In this document: in pieces, positions 2,165-19,091 of the stretch
How positions within the stretch are numbered: the stretch's first letter is position 1
Layout: each line of letters starts with the position of its first letter
Source: an uncultured Gammaproteobacteria bacterium
GTDB lineage: Bacteria; Patescibacteriota; Patescibacteriia; Magasanikbacterales; UBA922
Length of the DNA: 64,000 bases
Reading direction: 5' to 3'
Assembly (NCBI GenBank): GCA_964447765.1
Contig: CAYUTO010000002.1
Coordinates: forward strand, 148,316-212,315
The notes under the pieces: model-generated
The model's database searches: none
What the model was told of the DNA's origin: nothing
What the model saw: only the letters and a program-made list of their open reading frames with translations
Program-made: the position numbers and the translations under genes

Positions 2165-3157
2165 ATGCCTACTTGGTTTCTTATTTTGATGGCACTGCTC
2201 CTCGGAGCATGCCAAGATGCAGTTGTCGGAGGAATCCGGCAGCTCGACGAAACCTCCAACCTCATGTTGTCAGAAGACAGTCGAGATACCTGGGTCGCGG
2301 AAGATGCCTACCCGGACACCATGATCGAGGATCCAACGATCGTGACTGATGCAACTCCCTACGACACCACTTCTGAAGTGGATACGAGGGACGTGGCAGA
2401 CACGGTCGCGGAAGTCGACGTGATCATTCCGGATTCAACTCCGGAGACGATCGAAGACATCGGACAAGAAGTCGTAGATACGACCGTGCCAGAAACCATC
2501 GGGGATACTGCGTCTGTACCTGATACGGTACTCGAGGTCGATACTGCTACGCCGGAGTGCGAAGATGACTTCGGTTGTGAAGATGACGACGACTGTACTC
2601 TCGACTCCTGCGAGAATTTCTCGTGCGTGCACGAGGAGAATACTTTGTGTGTCGCAGATACTGATGGTGATGGAATCGTTGATATCGATGACGTCTGTCC
2701 GCTGCAGCCCGAGTACTTCGATTACTTCGAAGACGACGATGGTTGTCCCGAGGCAGATCAAGATCATGATGGCTATACTCCTCTCGAAGGAGATTGCGGT
2801 GATGATCCGTCTCTCGGGAACGACCCGGCATCGTTCTGCTGGAACGAGTATGATGGCTACAATCTGCGCATACACTTCGGTGTAGGTGCAGACGAGCGGC
2901 CGTCGTGCGACTTCTACTACGACGATGGCGAGTTTGTCGAAGGAGTGTTCTTCTTCGAGACCAATGGTGCATTCCTGATCGGCCCGCACATCGCGGGGAG
3001 TGATACTCCGGGTGACGGAGTGGACCAAGATTGTGACGGGTCAGCAGACGATCCAGGAGAGTACGGACTCACGGAGCCCGACTGCATCTGGTGGCTCTTC
3101 GAAGACGACTCTAAAGAGGTCTCGTGTTGGTGGATGGAATTCGTCCCCACACCCTAG
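2165..3157 (+). CDS. High-GC, very acidic (D/E-rich) secreted lipoprotein (family member 2). It has a classic lipobox LLLGAC and a thrombospondin type-3 / calcium-binding-like DTDGDGIVDIDDVCP motif.
   Basis: The ORF track gives 2123-3157. The ATG at 2165 (MPTWFLILMALLLGAC) is preceded by GGAGA at -8. Composition and codon usage are high-GC. The C-terminal region only loosely resembles the shared family domain. Confidence 0.7.
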   Translation: MPTWFLILMALLLGACQDAVVGGIRQLDETSNLMLSEDSRDTWVAEDAYPDTMIEDPTIVTDATPYDTTSEVDTRDVADTVAEVDVIIPDSTPETIEDIGQEVVDTTVPETIGDTASVPDTVLEVDTATPECEDDFGCEDDDDCTLDSCENFSCVHEENTLCVADTDGDGIVDIDDVCPLQPEYFDYFEDDDGCPEADQDHDGYTPLEGDCGDDPSLGNDPASFCWNEYDGYNLRIHFGVGADERPSCDFYYDDGEFVEGVFFFETNGAFLIGPHIAGSDTPGDGVDQDCDGSADDPGEYGLTEPDCIWWLFEDDSKEVSCWWMEFVPTP

Positions 3158-3234: not shown

Positions 3235-3251
3235 TACACTTACTCTATCGT

Positions 3252-3285
3252 TTGACAGTTCCTAGTTTTTATGCTAGGTTATAAT
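3252..3285 (+). promoter_or_regulatory. Promoter region for lipoprotein gene 3. It is homologous to the gene-4 promoter (TTGACA, 17 nt, TAGGTT, then an overlapping TATAAT).
   Basis: It aligns base-for-base with the gene-4 promoter around ...gctag[ga]tta...tgtattttgaa. The -10 is weaker than consensus. Confidence 0.4.
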
Positions 3286-3612
3286 GTATTTTGAACTTCG
3301 CATTTCGGCTGTCTGTACTATAAAAATAGTACAGGTGTACGGTATGCGGCACTTGAAAAATATTCGAGTGCTGGATCTTTGAAAAAATAGAAACGCACAG
3401 TCCAGATAGGAACTATTCGTCTGCCACAGTGGCAAGGACGTATGTACTATCGAGAGACTGTAAAGGAGGTATAGACAGCAAAGGTTTTGCTGTCTAGAAA
3501 TGTGGGTATCCTTAGAGTACAAGTCCGGATAAACAGTCGTCACAAGTCGTGGCGAGCATGTGAAATCTGGATGAACTGCCACACACCAAACACACGTGGC
3601 AAGGGGAATATC

Positions 3613-5442
3613 ATGAAGTTCAATACCAAGCCCATCATCCTGATGGGCTCCGCTCTGCTCGCACTCGCGAGTCTGAGCAGTGGGTGCGCTGATCACACGC
3701 CGGATGAGCTGGTCGTGGTCCAAGCGCCGGTCGTCGACATCGACAACGACGGAGTTCTCGACAATCTCGACAACTGCGACGATGTGCCGAACGAAGACCA
3801 AGCTGATACCGACAACAACGGTGTCGGTGATGCCTGTCAGGCAGACGACGACAGCGACGGTCACCTCGATGGTGCCGACAACTGCCCGCTCGTTTCGAAC
3901 AGTGACCAGCACAACCACGACGGCCCGGGCAACCTCAACTCGATCGTGACGACCGACACCATGGGTGACGCGTGCGATCCCGACGACGACAACGACGGGA
4001 TCTGCGATCAGGATGTGCCGGAAGGTACGGTTGGATGCGTCTACTACGACGATCATCCGGACAACTGCGAGGGTACGCCCAATCCGTTGCAGGAAGACCT
4101 CGACAACGACTACTTCGGCGACGCCTGCGACAACGACTGGGATGGTGACAACGTCCACAATGACGATGACACCTGCCCGTTCCTGCGCAACCAGGGTGAA
4201 GGACCGCAGAAGGACTCGGACAGCGACGGCGACGGCGACCTGTGCGACGATGATGACGATGGCGACGGTATCCCCGACGTCAGCGACAATTGTCCTCTGC
4301 ACTGCAACCCCGAGCAGGTCAACATGGACACCAGCGACGGTAACACCGATACCGAGGGAGATATCTTCGGCGACGAGTGCGACACCGATCCTGATGGCGA
4401 CGGCGTCATGAACTTCCACATGTGGCAGATGCCGCCGTGGTCGTGCGATGACGACGACAACTGCACGGTCGATCTCGACTGCGGTGACGACGACAACTGC
4501 ACCGACGACTGGTGCTACATGCCAGAAGATGGCAACGTCACCGCGAACTACTGGACCTGCCAGAACACCATCGACCTCGAGAACGAGGGTTGTATGGAGC
4601 CGCAGTGCTCCACCAACACCGACTGCCCGAGCGATGGTAACCCGTGCACCGACGAATGGTGCGACATGGGTGTCTGTGCGGTCTTGAACAACACGGCATC
4701 TTGTGCCGACTCCGACCTCTGCGATGGGGCCGAAGTCTGCGCCGGTGGTGTGTGTACGGACCAGGCGGATCTGGTCTGCAACGACAACAACTCCTGCACC
4801 GACGACACTTGTGTCCCGGCTACGGGTTGTTCCTACATGAGCGACGACACGAACGTGTGCGTCGACGCCAACCTCTGTAACGGCACTGAGACTTGCGTCT
4901 CGGGCGTCTGTACCGATCAGGCGGATCTGAGCTGCAACGACGAGGATGGCACTACGGCCGACTCGTGCGATCCCTCCACGGGATGCGTGCATACTCCGAT
5001 CGGAGGAGCGTGCACGGTCAATGCGAACTGCAACGACGGTGATCCGTTGACCTACGACACGTGCGTCTCGCTCGTCTGCCAGTATGCGCCGGGCATTCGC
5101 GTGCAGGTCTCGTCGACCGATGTGTCGGAGGCTTGGCAGGTCAACTTCTACTACAACGGCACGACGATCTCCGGCAACCTGCCCTTCGACGGCACCTTGC
5201 CGAAGACTCAGTCCTGTGACTGGGGTGTCGATCTCGCGGTCAATCGTCCCAGTACCAACCTGTACTGGGATTGCAACCCGGGGTTCCCCTCGAAGTCGAC
5301 CTTGACCGTCATGGTCAACGGCGTCACGAAGACGAACCAGTTCATGCAGCGCGCTTCGGCATGCGGCAATGCTGCACCGGGCAACCTGTACCTGTCGGAC
5401 GAGACGGGGGACAACGACCTCGGCTGCCCGGCCGCTCCTTAG
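3613..5442 (+). CDS. High-GC secreted lipoprotein (family member 3). It has a signal peptide with lipobox LSSGC, a long array of thrombospondin type-3-like calcium-binding repeats (D.D.DG..D..DNCP...N.DQ.D), Cys-rich CxDxNxC repeats, and the conserved C-terminal family domain.
   Basis: The ORF track gives 3487-5442. The ATG at 3613 (MKFNTKPIILMGSALLALASLSSGC) is preceded by AAGGGG. Repeats include DNDGVLDNLDNCDDVPNEDQADTDNNGVGDAC. The C-terminus reads ...SCDWGVDLAV...WDCNPG...VNG...NLYL...LGCP. Confidence 0.8.
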   Translation: MKFNTKPIILMGSALLALASLSSGCADHTPDELVVVQAPVVDIDNDGVLDNLDNCDDVPNEDQADTDNNGVGDACQADDDSDGHLDGADNCPLVSNSDQHNHDGPGNLNSIVTTDTMGDACDPDDDNDGICDQDVPEGTVGCVYYDDHPDNCEGTPNPLQEDLDNDYFGDACDNDWDGDNVHNDDDTCPFLRNQGEGPQKDSDSDGDGDLCDDDDDGDGIPDVSDNCPLHCNPEQVNMDTSDGNTDTEGDIFGDECDTDPDGDGVMNFHMWQMPPWSCDDDDNCTVDLDCGDDDNCTDDWCYMPEDGNVTANYWTCQNTIDLENEGCMEPQCSTNTDCPSDGNPCTDEWCDMGVCAVLNNTASCADSDLCDGAEVCAGGVCTDQADLVCNDNNSCTDDTCVPATGCSYMSDDTNVCVDANLCNGTETCVSGVCTDQADLSCNDEDGTTADSCDPSTGCVHTPIGGACTVNANCNDGDPLTYDTCVSLVCQYAPGIRVQVSSTDVSEAWQVNFYYNGTTISGNLPFDGTLPKTQSCDWGVDLAVNRPSTNLYWDCNPGFPSKSTLTVMVNGVTKTNQFMQRASACGNAAPGNLYLSDETGDNDLGCPAAP

Positions 5443-5443
5443 A

Positions 5444-5646
5444 ACCTCTCCTGCCTCGGCAGGAGACACCACGAAGCGATGTATGATTCGCTTCTGTAGG
5501 TGACGTTCGACGACGATCATACAACAACCCGGGGAAGTGCGCGTGCTACGGCACCCGCTTCCCCCTCTCTACTCTGAATTCAAGTACGATCTTGAAGATA
5601 GAGTAAAGAATAACAAAAAACTCCTGAGAATATTCAGGAGTTTTTT
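5444..5646 (+). repeat. Copy A of a ~200-bp conserved structured 3' element. It has five hairpins and ends in a terminator. The second copy is at 8229-8428.
   Basis: It is near-identical (a handful of substitutions) to 8229-8428. Hairpins include ctcctgcc-tc-ggcaggag and gaagcga-tgtatgat-tcgcttc. Further hairpins are the nested ggggaag...[gtgc-tacg-gcac]...cttcccc and ttcaag-tacgat-cttgaa. The last is ctcctga-loop-tcaggag followed by T6. Confidence 0.7.
5615..5646. terminator. Bidirectional Rho-independent terminator: A6, ctcctga-gaatat-tcaggag, T6. It forms the 3' end of repeat copy A.
   Basis: The stem-loop is flanked by A-run and T-run. Confidence 0.7.
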
Positions 5647-5671
5647 GTATGGTAAAGGTGGGTATTTTGTC

Positions 5672-5700
5672 TTGACTTATTTCTTTTTGTGTGCTAGATT
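5672..5700 (+). promoter_or_regulatory. sigma70-like promoter: TTGACT (5672-5677), 17 nt, TAGATT (5695-5700). It serves lipoprotein gene 4.
   Basis: Hexamers and spacing were read directly. It is homologous to the gene-3 promoter. Confidence 0.65.
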
Positions 5701-5934
5701 ATCCTGTATTTTGAAAATCCCTGTAGCGTGTGTATTTTTTGTGTGCTAAGTACGTATGCTATGTCGCTCGAAGTATATTCGAGCGATTAGATGTTCTTTA
5801 CAGAATAGTTAGTTATTTTCACAGTCAGAGGATGGGTGTACGTATAGAGAAATACGTGTGTATATCCACCCTCTGACTGCGGAAGTTCCACAAGTTAGAG
5901 TTCGTGAGGCTAGTGTTCAAAGGAAGTCTTTAGA

Positions 5935-8205
5935 ATGTACAGCAATCGCAACTCCATCGTCGCGCTCGTCGCGACGACCCTACTCATGGGGCTCATGAGC
6001 ATCTCGGCGTGCGAAAAGCACGACGACGGCAGTACCACCATCGTCAACAAGGAGGACCTCGGCCCGCAAACCGAGGCAGGTGCGCTCGATCTCGGGTTCT
6101 GCTCGATCAACTGGGACCAGACGCACACGTGCGTCGAGCTCGACTGTCCGGCATTCGGCGTCGAGTTCGAGCTCTGCAACGGTGCACCGGGACAGGGCTG
6201 TACGCTCGGTGCCAAGGTCGGTACCTGTGCTCCGCTCACGTGCGGCTCGCAGACCGTCCAGGTCTGCGACGGACCTCCGGGTCCGCAGGGCGAAGTCGGA
6301 CCACAAGGTCCGGCGGGTGATGCTGGTGCAACCGGTGAAGTCGGTCCGCAAGGGGAAACAGGTCCCCAGGGTCCGGCAGGCGACGCAGGTGCTACGGGTG
6401 AGGTGGGTCCAGAGGGGCCACAGGGTGACACGGGTCCGCAAGGTCCGTCGGGTCACAACAGCCTCATCCGTCAGTCGCCCGCGGGCGCGAACTGCCCCTA
6501 CGGAGGCACGCTCATCGAGAGCGGTGTCGACGATGGGTATCCGAGTGGAACGGCGGACAACGGTGTCCTTGAGGCAGACGAGGTCGATCACTTCTCCTAC
6601 GTCTGCAACGGTGCGCCAGGCCAGAATGGCTTGAGCTACTCGTGCTCGATCGGCGAGCTCATCGGTGAGTGCCGCACGTTCTCGTGCGGTCCGACGACTG
6701 CAGATCGGATTCAGCAAGTGAGGTTCCAAGTCTGCAACGGTGAGACGGGTCCACAAGGTTCTCAGGGGCAGCAGGGTCAGGCTGGTGAAGACGGTACGAG
6801 CTACTCGTGCTGGTTCGGTGGCTATGACGGTCAGTGCCGCACGTTCTCGTGCGGTCCGGACATCGACATGGATTCGATGGATCAGGTGATCGACAACTCG
6901 ATCGAGATCTGCGACGGCGAAGATGGACAGGACGGCGACAGCTGCTCCGTCTCCAAAGAAGATGGCTGCGCGACGATCTCGTGCGGTCCGGAAGGTGAGA
7001 TGTCGCTTTCGTGGGAATCAGAAACGATTTGCGACGGCGATTCGTGCTACTTCGGTAGCGAAGATGTCAAAGTCATGACCCTGGTCGGGGGCACCGAGTG
7101 TGTGTCGCTCTGCTGCGGCGTGGGTAATGGCGCGCATTGCGTCGACATCTGCGACGGCGAGAACTGTTCGGTCAGTCCCAAGGAGGACGGCTGTGCAGAG
7201 GTCTGCTGCAGTGGCGACTGCGTCGACATCTGCGACGGCGCGCCCGGCGGCTGTCTGAACGACGGCGAGTGTGCGAACGAAACCTTGTGCGACGGTGTCG
7301 AAGTGTGTGATCAGGGCATCTGCAGGCCGGGTACGCCCGTCACCTGCAACAACAACAATGTATGCGATGGTACTGAGACCTGCAATCCGGGAACCGGAAC
7401 CTGCAGCTCGGGCACCTCGCTCACATGCACTCCCGATGACAACCCGTGCACCGATACGGTGTGCGACGCGGTCCTCGGGTGCACGCACGTGAACGACAAT
7501 ACAAACACGTGCCTCGATGGCAACGTCTGCAACGGTGCAGAGGTATGTATCGCGGGTGTGTGTACAGACCAGGCGGATCTGGTCTGTGTCGACGCCGATC
7601 TCTGCGACGGTACCGAGACTTGCAACCCTTCGACGGGATGCAGCGCCTCGGGAACGCCGCTCAATTGCGACGACAACGACATGTGCACCACGGACAGCTG
7701 TGTCTCCGCAACGGGATGCGCTCACGCTCCGGTGGTGTGCGACGACATCGATCCGAACACGACGGACTCGTGCAATCCTTCAACGGGATGCGTGCACACT
7801 CCGATCGCTGGGCCAGAGATGCTCACGATCAAGGTGACCATTCCCGCGCGCGGAAGCCCCTCGGCAACGCCGGCGGGTGATGTGCGCTTCATCTGGGGTT
7901 CGACCTTCAACGACGGGGCACATCCGGCAAATGCCGGGAACGCCTACACGGTGACCCGGTCGATCGAGAAGTCGCAGGCCTGCCTCTGGGGCGTCGACAT
8001 CACGGTCGCCAATCCCGGCACCTCGCTCTTCTGGGACTGCCCCCTCAACGGCAATCCCGGTACGAAGTTCGATCCGAATCGTCTCCAGACGTGGGTCAAC
8101 AACGTCGAGAAGGTGGGTGTCCCGAAGCAGGACGGCAGCCAGTGCAGCGGCCAGGGTCCAGGTAATCTGTACCTCTCGCCCGCACAGCTCGGCTGTACGC
8201 CCTGA
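5935..8205 (+). CDS. High-GC secreted lipoprotein (family member 4). It has lipobox MSISAC, collagen-like G-X-Y tracts ([31 protein letters not shown]...), ICDG[EDA] Cys repeats, the same CxDxNxC Cys-rich repeats as gene 3, and the conserved C-terminal family domain.
   Basis: The ATG at 5935 is preceded by AAGGAAG at -8. The C-terminus reads ...[10 protein letters not shown]...WDCPLNG...VNN...NLYL...LGCTP. Several 20-40-nt stretches are near-identical to gene 3. Confidence 0.8.
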
Positions 8206-8228
8206 GCTAGCTCGGTAGTTCTTTCAGG

Positions 8229-8428
8229 ACCTCTCCTGCCCCGGCAGGAGACACCACGAAGCGATGTATGATTCGCTTCAGTAGGTGACGTTCGACGACG
8301 ATCATACAACAACCCGGGGAAGTGCGCGTGCTACGGCACCCGCTTCCCCCTCTCTACTCTGAATTCAAATACTTTTGAAGATAGAGTAAAGAATAACAAA
8401 AAACTCCTGATTATTTCAGGAGTTTTTT
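8229..8428 (+). repeat. Copy B of the ~200-bp structured 3' element. It starts 23 nt after the gene-4 stop.
   Basis: It is near-identical to 5444-5646. The terminator loop differs (ttattt versus gaatat) but the stem is preserved. Confidence 0.7.
8398..8428. terminator. Bidirectional Rho-independent terminator: A6, ctcctga-loop-tcaggag, T6. It forms the end of repeat copy B.
   Basis: The stem-loop is flanked by A and T runs. Confidence 0.7.
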
Positions 8429-8489
8429 GTTTTATGAAGATTAATACTGTTTCAAAATATTCTGTTTAGAACAAGCCTATGATATACTT

Positions 8490-17811: not shown

Positions 17812-17843
17812 ATCCTGCACTAGAATAGTGTAGGATTTTTTTG
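17812..17843 (+). terminator. Rho-independent terminator for the + strand gene: atcctgcac-loop-gtgtaggat, then T7.
   Basis: Hairpin with one mismatch, followed by a T run. Confidence 0.55.
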
Positions 17844-17848
17844 TGTAT

Positions 17849-17873
17849 AAAAAAACCGCTGGTGAGTAAGCGG
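17849..17873 (-). terminator. Rho-independent terminator for the minus-strand lipoprotein gene (on minus: ccgcttactcaccagcgg, then T7).
   Basis: Hairpin plus U-run on the minus strand. It is convergent with the + strand terminator. Confidence 0.55.
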
Positions 17874-17936
17874 ATCAGAGAGAGCGGGAGAGTGAAGTGC
17901 ATAATGCAAGTCACTCTCCCGCGCGTCGCAGGCCCC

Positions 17937-19091
17937 TCAGAGGCCGAGTGGGCAGTTTAGGTCTCCTCTTGAGATGAGGAGAGATTTGCCGCAGGGAGCC
18001 TCCGGATCGTCCACGATGGTGTACCGGCTGGCTTGAGGAACTTCCTCGTGGAGTGGATCACCGTCAATCATGATCGATTCAATCGTATCCGCGATCAGCG
18101 GGTTTCCGGGGCATTCGTACCACCCAGATTCGGGTATGTTATCGCTCTCGAGTTCGAAGTCGAGTCGAATTCCCTCACTGCATGCCTCGAGAACCGGGAT
18201 GTACATGATGTACGGTGCTCGTCCCAGCCACGTTAAGTTGTCGAACCTGAGCCACACTATATCTTGGTTATGAGGTACTTTTAAGGTGACCTCAAGGAAG
18301 ATGTAGGTGCTGAAGATGCATCCAGTGAAGGGGTCGCACCGGTCCTTCGTACCTGGATTGAAATCGGCGCATATGATGTGTTCATTCTCGCATACGCTAC
18401 TTTTGCACGTCGCGTACGTACATGCATTGAAGTCGTCGCATTCGTTGGCATCAGAACATGCACTCCCGTCTGCGACGGTGCATACACCGCCGATGGCGTC
18501 AACGCATTCTTCATTGGAGAGACAGTCTGCATTGTTGCTACACTCACGTGCTGGCGGTGCTGGAAGTGCACAACCTCCGATCGTGTCGCAGGTGGAATTG
18601 CCAGGACACTCGAGTGGTTCTCCCCATATACAGTATCCAATCTTACCATGCTCCGAACATCTCTCTTCACCATCGCACGCATTGTGGTTATTGCAGTGCC
18701 AGTCCTGCGTACATTCCAGGTATTCGACGCAGGAGCCCTCGACACAGATGAAGGCGTTAGAACCGAGTTTCGTGCAGTCAGCGCTGGTGTTACATGATAT
18801 GTCGAGCGCATCTCGTCCGTCCTGAGACGTAAGAACGTCAGAGGGGCCGAGTGAGTCCAGGGTAGACGAACTCGAGTCGGTGATATCAGTCACCGTGTTG
18901 CTGTCAGAGGGTGAACTGGTGGCGTCAGGTTCTCCGGTGGTGGTGTCAGGAACCCAGATCGTGGTGGGGGAAGTATCACGCGTGGAAGTGTTACCACTCA
19001 CGACGCTCCCGATCTTCGGGTCGATGTCGCAGCCAACGAAGGCTGTGACCATCATCATGACTGAAGTAAGAACTGAGAAGATGTATCGCAT
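17937..19091 (-). CDS. Intermediate-GC secreted lipoprotein (family member 5). It has lipobox AFVGC, a Ser/Thr/Asp-rich linker, Cys-rich CxDxNxC repeats, and the conserved C-terminal family domain.
   Basis: MRYIFSVLTSVMMMVTAFVGCD. AAGGAG sits 7 nt upstream on the minus strand. Repeats (CDDFNACTYATC, CDPFTGCIFS) resemble genes 3 and 4. The C-terminus reads ...ACSEGIRLDF...WYECPGNP...IDG...LNCPLGL. Confidence 0.75.
   Translation of the reverse strand: MRYIFSVLTSVMMMVTAFVGCDIDPKIGSVVSGNTSTRDTSPTTIWVPDTTTGEPDATSSPSDSNTVTDITDSSSSTLDSLGPSDVLTSQDGRDALDISCNTSADCTKLGSNAFICVEGSCVEYLECTQDWHCNNHNACDGEERCSEHGKIGYCIWGEPLECPGNSTCDTIGGCALPAPPARECSNNADCLSNEECVDAIGGVCTVADGSACSDANECDDFNACTYATCKSSVCENEHIICADFNPGTKDRCDPFTGCIFSTYIFLEVTLKVPHNQDIVWLRFDNLTWLGRAPYIMYIPVLEACSEGIRLDFELESDNIPESGWYECPGNPLIADTIESIMIDGDPLHEEVPQASRYTIVDDPEAPCGKSLLISRGDLNCPLGL

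Follow-up and report, generated by a model that had tools for sequence, protein, structure and literature searches.

The 64,000-nucleotide stretch of DNA analysed here (the window) comes from a bacterium of the candidate phyla radiation (CPR), Candidatus Magasanikbacteria, and carries a module of ~210 bp that is present twice, as direct repeats on the plus strand with a spacing of 2.8 kb, at the 3' ends of two paralogous lipoprotein genes, here named A and B. This module (the element) very probably has a function as RNA and would belong to a family not yet described. In related genomes it is conserved above the neutral rate and found at orthologous positions, with substitutions that preserve a fold of several hairpins and a probable pseudoknot. 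The initial annotation of the window had reported a near-identical duplicate of about 200 bp downstream of two lipoprotein genes; the duplicate is borne out here with boundaries that differ by a few bases, and the designation of the genes is reasonable (both encode a signal peptide followed by a cysteine).

Extent and predicted fold of the element

Copy A occupies positions 5441–5650 and copy B positions 8226–8432; 197 of 205 aligned bases are identical (96%) with three gap positions. In copy A the whole conserved 3' untranslated region (UTR) module runs from the stop codon through the end of a terminator T-tract: homology begins at the TAG of gene A on one side and 22 nt past the TGA of gene B on the other, and ends exactly at the T-tract, with flanks further out that cannot be aligned. 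The coding sequences upstream were originally described as much diverged, and over the C-terminal domain genes A and B are indeed only 39% identical in amino acids, 47% in nucleotides and 46% at four-fold degenerate sites (saturated), against 96% in the element.

The minimum free energy of the fold is -97.9 kcal/mol for copy A and -93.3 kcal/mol for copy B, compared with -51 and -47 for dinucleotide shuffles (z = -10.6; none of 200 shuffles was equally stable). Five strong hairpins are predicted (H1, H2, H4, H5 and the terminator) together with a small 4-bp hairpin, H3; the hairpins first described for each copy are borne out. H1 (5447–5466; 8232–8251 in copy B) has an 8-bp stem, TCTCCTGC/GCAGGAGA, that is invariant in all genomes, with a loop that is free in size and sequence. 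H2 (5467–5502; 8252–8287) has a 13-bp interrupted stem, CACCACGAAGCGA / TCGCTTC.GT.GGTG, and an 8-nt loop, TGTATGAT (5480–5487; 8265–8272), which is perfectly complementary to ATCATACA, located 28 nt downstream (5516–5523; 8301–8308); the two probably pair as a pseudoknot. Between them lies H3 (5504–5515; 8289–8300; CGTT-CGAC-GACG), and the second pseudoknot arm is followed by a conserved CA-rich single-stranded linker, ACAACCC, the arm and linker together spanning 5516–5530. H4 (5531–5564; 8316–8349) has 14 bp, is GC-rich and is capped by a C(UACG)G tetraloop. H5 (5566–5609; 8351–8392) comprises 16 bp and an internal loop; its stem is almost invariant in sequence while the loop of the hairpin is variable.

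Each copy ends in a predicted intrinsic terminator (5613–5650 and 8395–8432), a G+C-containing hairpin with a T-tract downstream of a same-strand gene, formed by A6, a 15-bp stem and T6. The hairpin is symmetric (A6-stem-T6) and was detected on both strands, as expected of the bidirectional terminator proposed initially; this property is not conserved, however, as the A6-T6 symmetry is lost in one of the related genomes described below (L004). Copies A and B differ in the loops of H1, H5 and the terminator, at a single bulge base of H2 and at the top pair of H5, by T/C, T/A and G/A changes and loop indels. The first description, of a few substitutions and a loop change with stems kept, therefore holds: the differences fall in loops, a bulge and one compensated pair.

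Occurrence at orthologous positions in related genomes

A 20-mer from the element, searched against the contigs of species-representative genomes, found one true orthologue, on contig L003 of a metagenome-assembled genome of Candidatus Magasanikbacteria. On this contig, 128 nt from the 3' part of the element stand ahead of the glycosyltransferase orthologue whose counterpart in the window comes after copy B, and the contig ends inside the element. Full-length protein A also has one true orthologue (P0001) amid thousands of generic thrombospondin-repeat matches; the two proteins are 43% identical overall and 78–85% over the last 170 amino acids, and on the Logan contigs for P0001 (L004 and L005) the full element stands directly after the stop codon of the gene A orthologue, with different DNA behind it in L004 where the window has the gene B promoter. 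With a profile of six C-terminal domains the sole match was a fragment, P0121, on the 919-nt Joint Genome Institute (JGI) contig L008, which contains the end of the gene A orthologue, the full element, a conserved promoter and leader, and the start of the gene B orthologue.

These orthologous positions (L003, L004/L005 and L008) show the order gene A-element-gene B-element-glycosyltransferase to be ancestral to these genomes. The initial annotation had advised a search of related genomes and would have counted a lack of additional copies, together with an equal divergence of coding and untranslated sequence, against a function; further copies exist, at orthologous positions in three other Magasanikbacteria-like genomes, and the divergences are very unequal. 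The known distribution of four related genomes is very narrow. Each related locus holds one copy of the element and no more, and there is no third copy within the 64-kb window (blastn, nhmmer and covariance model R1 in both cases). A 21-mer gave zero matches among metagenome contigs, and a scan of viral contigs likewise gave none; the C-terminal domain of B alone, used as query, had no homologue, and a protein cluster look-up added nothing.

Matches to a second, better-conserved 21-mer, CTCTACTCTGAATTCAARTAC of H5, on contigs L006 (1788–1808) and L007 (7448–7468) were rejected as chance matches to the C-termini of hydrogenase small subunits; the site is the 3' end of a gene upstream of a likely hydrogenase large-subunit gene and encodes ...LYSEFKYD*. 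A large palindrome, GTCATTCCGAGCGA ... TCGCTCGGAATGAC, which encloses an inner hairpin, lies behind the element in L004 (6160–6248) and L005 (3630–3731); both contigs end there, and it may be a genomic repeat of that organism.

Genes A and B are adjacent paralogues, and the repeat could be viewed as the neutral leftover of a recent tandem duplication, or as a mere terminator with fortuitous hairpins. This reading is refuted and we give it almost no credence: the A-element-B order predates the split from L008 and L003, coding sequences that are saturated at four-fold sites flank an element that is 96% identical, and the element is conserved above the neutral rate. Insertion of a small non-autonomous mobile element after both genes, resembling a miniature inverted-repeat transposable element (MITE) or a repetitive extragenic palindromic (REP) sequence, would account for two near-identical and sharply bounded copies, and several short-read assemblies break inside them. 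It is nevertheless very improbable, as only two copies are present in 64 kb by sequence and covariance-model searches, scans of public collections gave orthologous loci or chance matches only, and the positions are syntenic across genomes near synonymous saturation. Moreover, no terminal inverted repeats join the ends and no target-site duplication is found in the flanks; a MITE was rejected on these grounds. The assembly breaks were discounted as evidence of high copy number since they also occur outside the repeat (~350 and ~1956–2042). The Logan assembly of SRR12712864, which contains this genome, breaks at these two places and at 5486 and 8381, the last two within the element; strain microdiversity or low coverage may perhaps explain the fragmentation of this GC-rich lipoprotein region.

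Conservation above the neutral rate and preservation of the fold

Comparison of copy A with L008 showed the element to be 92% identical and four-fold sites of the flanking genes 68% identical; the corresponding values against L004 are 83% and 61%, and those of the window against L003, over the 83 bases that can be compared, about 92% and 57%. Even the best-conserved adjacent coding segment, at 83% and 78% nucleotide identity, is below the element. An internal neutral control is available between copy B and L003, where the DNA separating the terminator from the glycosyltransferase promoter cannot be aligned. Such conservation is exceptional for a bacterial 3' UTR, a region that as a rule varies strongly between orthologues (PMC7049690).

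In all orthologues the predicted fold again contains H1, H2, H4, H5 and the terminator hairpin. The inner stem of H4 reads GTGC/GCAC in the window and L008 and TCGC/GCGA in L003 and L004, with two compensated pairs that are seen by eye. Compensated changes in L004 also include C-G to U-A in H3, U-A to C-G at the base of H5, and A-U to G-C in the pseudoknot (TGTGTGAT/ATCACACA); the top pair of H5 changes from G-C to A-U between copies A and B, again compensated. Three one-sided changes in H2 of the orthologues each give a G-U pair. In the four-sequence alignment 96.4% of pair cells are standard, compared with 42–51% when partners are slid, and four pairs have changed on both sides (0–1 in the slid controls), values that none of 500 shuffles reached; MAFFT misaligns the L004 H4 insertion and L004 H1. 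When equal numbers of random substitutions were placed in copy A, only 4/500, 3/500 and 0/500 simulated sequences were as stable as the respective orthologues.

The distribution of these changes differs between parts of the element. The terminator stem is CTCCTGA in both window copies, CTCCCGA in L008, GCTCGA in L003 and CCGCA in L004, always as a perfect hairpin with a T-tract behind it; since its sequence has been replaced in every genome, the terminator is under selection for structure only. There is free variation in the loops of H1, H5 and the terminator, but hardly any sequence change in the stems of H1, the 3' strand of H2, outer H4 and H5 or in the CA-rich linker, which argues that the body of the element may be recognised sequence-specifically or in tertiary contacts, beyond the needs of a generic exonuclease barrier. 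The original suggestion that the element has a function and is more than a terminator is thereby supported on three counts: synteny, identity above that of synonymous sites, and substitutions that preserve the fold.

Concerted evolution of the two copies

The window copies are 96% identical to each other but 90–93% identical to copies at orthologous positions elsewhere. Both have the same fast-evolving terminator stem, unlike the other genomes, and a derived A in GTAAAG that is GTAGAG in L008, L003 and L004. The terminator stem being identical in the window copies yet turned over between genomes, the alignments indicate gene conversion between the repeats as what would be the simplest account of their similarity. 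A 20-nt spacer (8206–8225) stands before copy B, with none before copy A, and although copy-B-specific in the window it is also present after the gene A orthologue of L008. The spacer includes part of a perfect 10-bp palindrome, GAGCTAGCTC (window 8203–8215; L008 262–275), that overlaps the stop codons of gene B and of the L008 gene A orthologue and is missing after gene A of the window.

The promoter-leader cassettes are homologous and form mosaics among paralogues and genomes (window 5651–5934 and 3250–3612; L008 491–775; L004 3620–3902). A leader hairpin at 5823–5879 is conserved in L008, and a related hairpin is found in the leader of the L004 gene A orthologue but not in that of gene A in the window, which suggests that leader cassettes are shuffled as modules.

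Exchange of this kind raises the alternative that the element acts as DNA, either as a homology block or recombination signal for conversion, deletion, amplification or cassette exchange, or as a set of palindromic operators for the next promoter. The concerted changes described above, the B-type spacer of the L008 A copy, the shuffled cassettes and the mosaic N-terminal parts of the proteins (43% identity overall versus 78–85% in the C-terminal 170 amino acids) would all be compatible with this, as would the strand-symmetric folding energy and the location of each copy 20–60 nt upstream of the next promoter. However, homology arms need no hairpins and predict neither compensatory nor G-U-compatible changes; the bounds of the unit, a stop codon and a T-tract, are landmarks of a transcript; and in L004 the element is not followed by the gene B promoter. 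There is also no recombinase, integrase or transposase gene in the window, and no reverse transcriptase, integrase or transposase domain among the window open reading frames (ORFs) that were scanned. We therefore consider a DNA-level role unlikely. The initial annotation offered a recombination or mobilisation site as one option. Mobilisation finds no support: terminal inverted repeats, target duplications, a transposase and an integrase are all missing and there are only two copies in 64 kb. Recombination does act on the element, as the copies evolve in concert, and looks like a consequence of the repeat and not its purpose.

Strand, molecule and proposed role

An RNA on the sense strand is favoured because the element is bounded by a stop codon and a same-strand terminator, because a few of its hairpin pairs show compensated changes, and because, within the reliably aligned H2, H4 and H5, five one-sided changes give G-U pairs on the plus strand that would be A-C on the other. 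Covariation in hairpins is not expected for sites in double-stranded DNA. Of the functions originally listed, the best fit is a 3' UTR RNA of the sense strand with a regulatory or stability role, and we infer from the sequence that the element is transcribed, acts as sense-strand RNA and is functional.

We favour, with moderate confidence, a cis-acting sense-strand 3' UTR module that would stabilise and insulate the mRNA 3' end, dock a specific partner and control both paralogues together. The element would be transcribed on the plus strand as the tail of each of the two lipoprotein mRNAs and would fold into H1–H5, with the H2 loop pairing to the downstream arm as a pseudoknot and its own intrinsic terminator ending the mRNA. 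The stack of hairpins would block 3'-to-5' exonucleases and insulate the gene from the next promoter, while the invariant stems and the linker may be a docking site for a specific trans-acting protein or RNA; a partner shared in this way could place both paralogues under common post-transcriptional control, with gene conversion presumably keeping the copies nearly identical.

Several points weigh against this proposal. Folding energies are the same on the plus and minus strands (difference <2.5 kcal/mol) and so are uninformative on strand, and one C-A mismatch at the base of H5, present in both window copies, would be a G-U pair on the minus strand; the choice of strand, and of RNA over single-stranded DNA, would then depend on position and a few G-U changes. 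The covariation analysis recommended initially did find compensated changes, but in only four independent sequences (the near-identical window copies, L008, L004 and a partial L003), such that covariation amounts to a handful of events; 42 of 62 pairs never vary and hence are silent on pairing, and the shuffle control is known to give too favourable a picture when sequences are related. Furthermore, a pure stabiliser needs no invariant stems, and the docking site is put forward by exclusion. No partner or target, and no 5'–3' UTR complementarity, was found in the available UTRs: RNAduplex comparisons of the element with four window leaders and those of L008 and L004 gave z values from -2.1 to +1.1 against shuffles, although this is a crude measure as the program over-extends long inputs.

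The sequence constraint in the stems and linker, which exceeds the needs of a stabiliser, could alternatively mean that the element, or its H5 and terminator part, is processed from the mRNA into a trans-acting small RNA. Small RNAs derived from 3' UTRs form an established class (review PMC5502269); the element has a strong terminator at its end, and its invariant stretches ACAACAACCC and CTCTACTCTGAATTCAA could serve as seeds. Yet no promoter-like site was found upstream of or within the element, the available UTRs showed no complementarity that would mark them as targets, and the bases of highest conservation lie for the most part within stems; we regard a small RNA as a doubtful explanation. 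A further, bolder reading may be offered tentatively: that the element represents an undescribed, lineage-restricted class of pseudoknotted RNA in Candidatus Magasanikbacteria, which might be bound sequence-specifically by a dedicated protein or RNA, or else processed to a trans-acting small RNA, and which might co-regulate a family of fast-evolving GC-rich surface lipoproteins while being homogenised by gene conversion.

Comparison with known repeats and 3' UTR elements

A search of the whole window against Rfam 15, the first check suggested in the initial annotation, gave no match to a described family at the gathering threshold; the best permissive matches (E = 0.12–0.24) had approximately half the gathering score and were driven by the terminator hairpin.

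REP sequences and bacterial interspersed mosaic elements (BIMEs) of enterobacteria consist of hairpin units of 20–40 nt in hundreds of copies at unrelated loci, associated with REP-associated tyrosine transposases (RAYTs). Like the element they are hairpin repeats in 3' untranslated or intergenic sites, can stabilise the upstream mRNA and are homogenised within a genome. The element, by contrast, is a single composite unit of 210 nt at two paralogous syntenic sites in 64 kb and has no transposase; the many copies at unrelated sites that define REP/BIME are not seen, both copies standing after paralogous genes. The Sma/Cla repeat that follows the Neisseria pilE/pilS loci is likewise non-coding and conserved, and stands at the 3' end of variable surface-protein gene copies that undergo gene conversion. 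It acts as DNA, however, with no known dependence on a hairpin fold, whereas the element has RNA-type compensatory changes and a terminator.

Other classes were considered and rejected. The variable and template repeats of a diversity-generating retroelement would lie inside the 3' end of the coding region, differ at adenines and have a reverse transcriptase nearby; here the repeat begins no earlier than the stop codon, its differences are T/C, T/A and G/A changes and loop indels, and there is no reverse transcriptase in the scanned ORFs. An integron attC site would be one imperfect palindrome behind promoterless cassettes next to an IntI integrase; here the genes have promoter-like sites of their own and long leaders, each copy contains several different hairpins, and no integrase was found. 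A processive-antitermination or JUMPstart-like role for copy B, which precedes a polysaccharide operon, is unlikely given the strong terminator and a conserved -10 motif belonging to the glycosyltransferase gene near its start.

Closer counterparts exist among bacterial 3' UTRs. The 'positive retroregulator' of Bacillus thuringiensis cry1Aa resembles the element in that a gene for an abundant protein, secreted or at the surface, is followed by stable stem-loops, one of them the terminator, and in being a portable module defined by a transcript end; as cited in PMC4113751, its stem-loops are thought to block 3' exonucleases (Wong & Chang 1986). The two are unrelated in sequence, and the element differs in its five or six hairpins, probable pseudoknot and invariant stems. 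The Staphylococcus aureus icaR 3' UTR (PMC3868564) is likewise long, acts in cis and carries a C-rich anti-Shine-Dalgarno-like motif, as does the element in H1 (CUCUCCUG) and H4 (CUUCCCCC); however, the 5'–3' UTR pairing that defines icaR is not above shuffled background here, and the C-rich motifs of the element are locked in strong hairpins. With the 3'-UTR-derived small RNAs reviewed in PMC5502269 the element has in common a conserved mRNA 3' end and shared terminator, but its processing and seeds are putative, and the available UTRs yielded no target. The general kind, a structured and conserved bacterial 3' UTR, is known; the motif, the probable pseudoknot, the CPR host and the concerted evolution are new.

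The lipoprotein genes and their genomic context

Gene A (3613–5442, plus strand) encodes a lipoprotein of 609 amino acids with a signal peptide and cysteine, thrombospondin type 3 repeats, cysteine-rich Dicty_CTDC repeats and a family-specific C-terminal domain; its G+C content at third codon positions (GC3) is 0.80. Gene B (5935–8205, plus strand; GC3 0.74) encodes a lipoprotein of 756 amino acids with collagen-like repeats, cysteine-rich repeats and a C-terminal domain of the same family. A promoter-like site for gene B (TTGACT-17-TAGATT, 5672–5700, plus strand) is also conserved in L008; downstream of it lies a structured leader of ~230 nt that includes the hairpin at 5823–5879.

The window is ~40% G+C with nearly all genes on the plus strand, and is dominated by a surface-polysaccharide cluster of glycosyltransferases, Wzy-type ligases, sugar-nucleotide enzymes and a flippase. 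Genes for proteins with a signal peptide and cysteine number four in the first 8.4 kb (445–1782, 2165–3157, 3613–5442 and 5935–8205), with a fifth on the minus strand (17937–19091); collagen-like, thrombospondin type 3 and cysteine-rich repeats occur across the set. GC3 of these five genes is 0.59–0.80 compared with 0.30–0.40 for neighbouring and other genes, while their promoters, leaders and terminators are AT-rich and host-like. A foreign high-GC donor is one possible source of the high GC3, GC-biased gene conversion within a recombining family another. Four of the five products (1447–1779, 5095–5439, 7816–8202 and 17940–18300 on the minus strand) carry a C-terminal domain of ~115 amino acids with four invariant cysteines; the second gene product (2165–3157) is without it. 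This domain has no Pfam match and no homologue outside this lineage among 5.8 billion proteins.

Reading or scanning the sequence revealed a sigma-70-like promoter motif at three of the four plus-strand lipoprotein genes. Long structured leaders and long multi-hairpin 3' UTRs are general to the lipoprotein genes, with this particular 3' UTR in A and B only. In the first gene the 3' UTR (1783–2076) likewise has considerable length and several hairpins, the last a symmetric A6-stem-T6 terminator (2048–2076); a block of ~90 nt within it (~1898–1990) is >90% identical to L004, the neighbouring proteins being very diverged. Behind the fifth gene, 17820–17936 on the minus strand contains a GC-rich hairpin of considerable length, GCGGGAGAGTGA...TCACTCTCCCGC, then a terminator and another symmetric hairpin, an architecture like that of the element in unrelated sequence.

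Coding potential in and across the element was also assessed. A mini-ORF (MYDSLL*/MYDSLQ*) 12 nt after AGGAGA of H1 was rejected, as L004 has ACG in place of ATG; a 70-amino-acid ORF (5537–5749) and antisense ORFs that start in the element were rejected as they are not common to both copies. An ATG-initiated ORF of 748 amino acids (3274–5520, minus strand) runs antisense to gene A and starts within the element; because gene A has high GC3 and gene B has only shorter antisense ORFs, it is a compositional artefact typical of high-GC3 genes.

Biological significance

To our knowledge almost nothing has been described of post-transcriptional regulation in CPR bacteria (Patescibacteria), which are ultra-small, uncultured and probably live on other cells. 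As a 3' UTR the element exceeds in conservation even the best-conserved segment of the gene to which it belongs, and it is a clean example of a non-coding module that evolves in concert beside diverging coding sequences. Its attachment to hypervariable surface lipoproteins, which probably mediate contact with the outside, points to control of surface composition at the RNA level; if a sequence-specific partner exists, the element would be a handle by which to find it.

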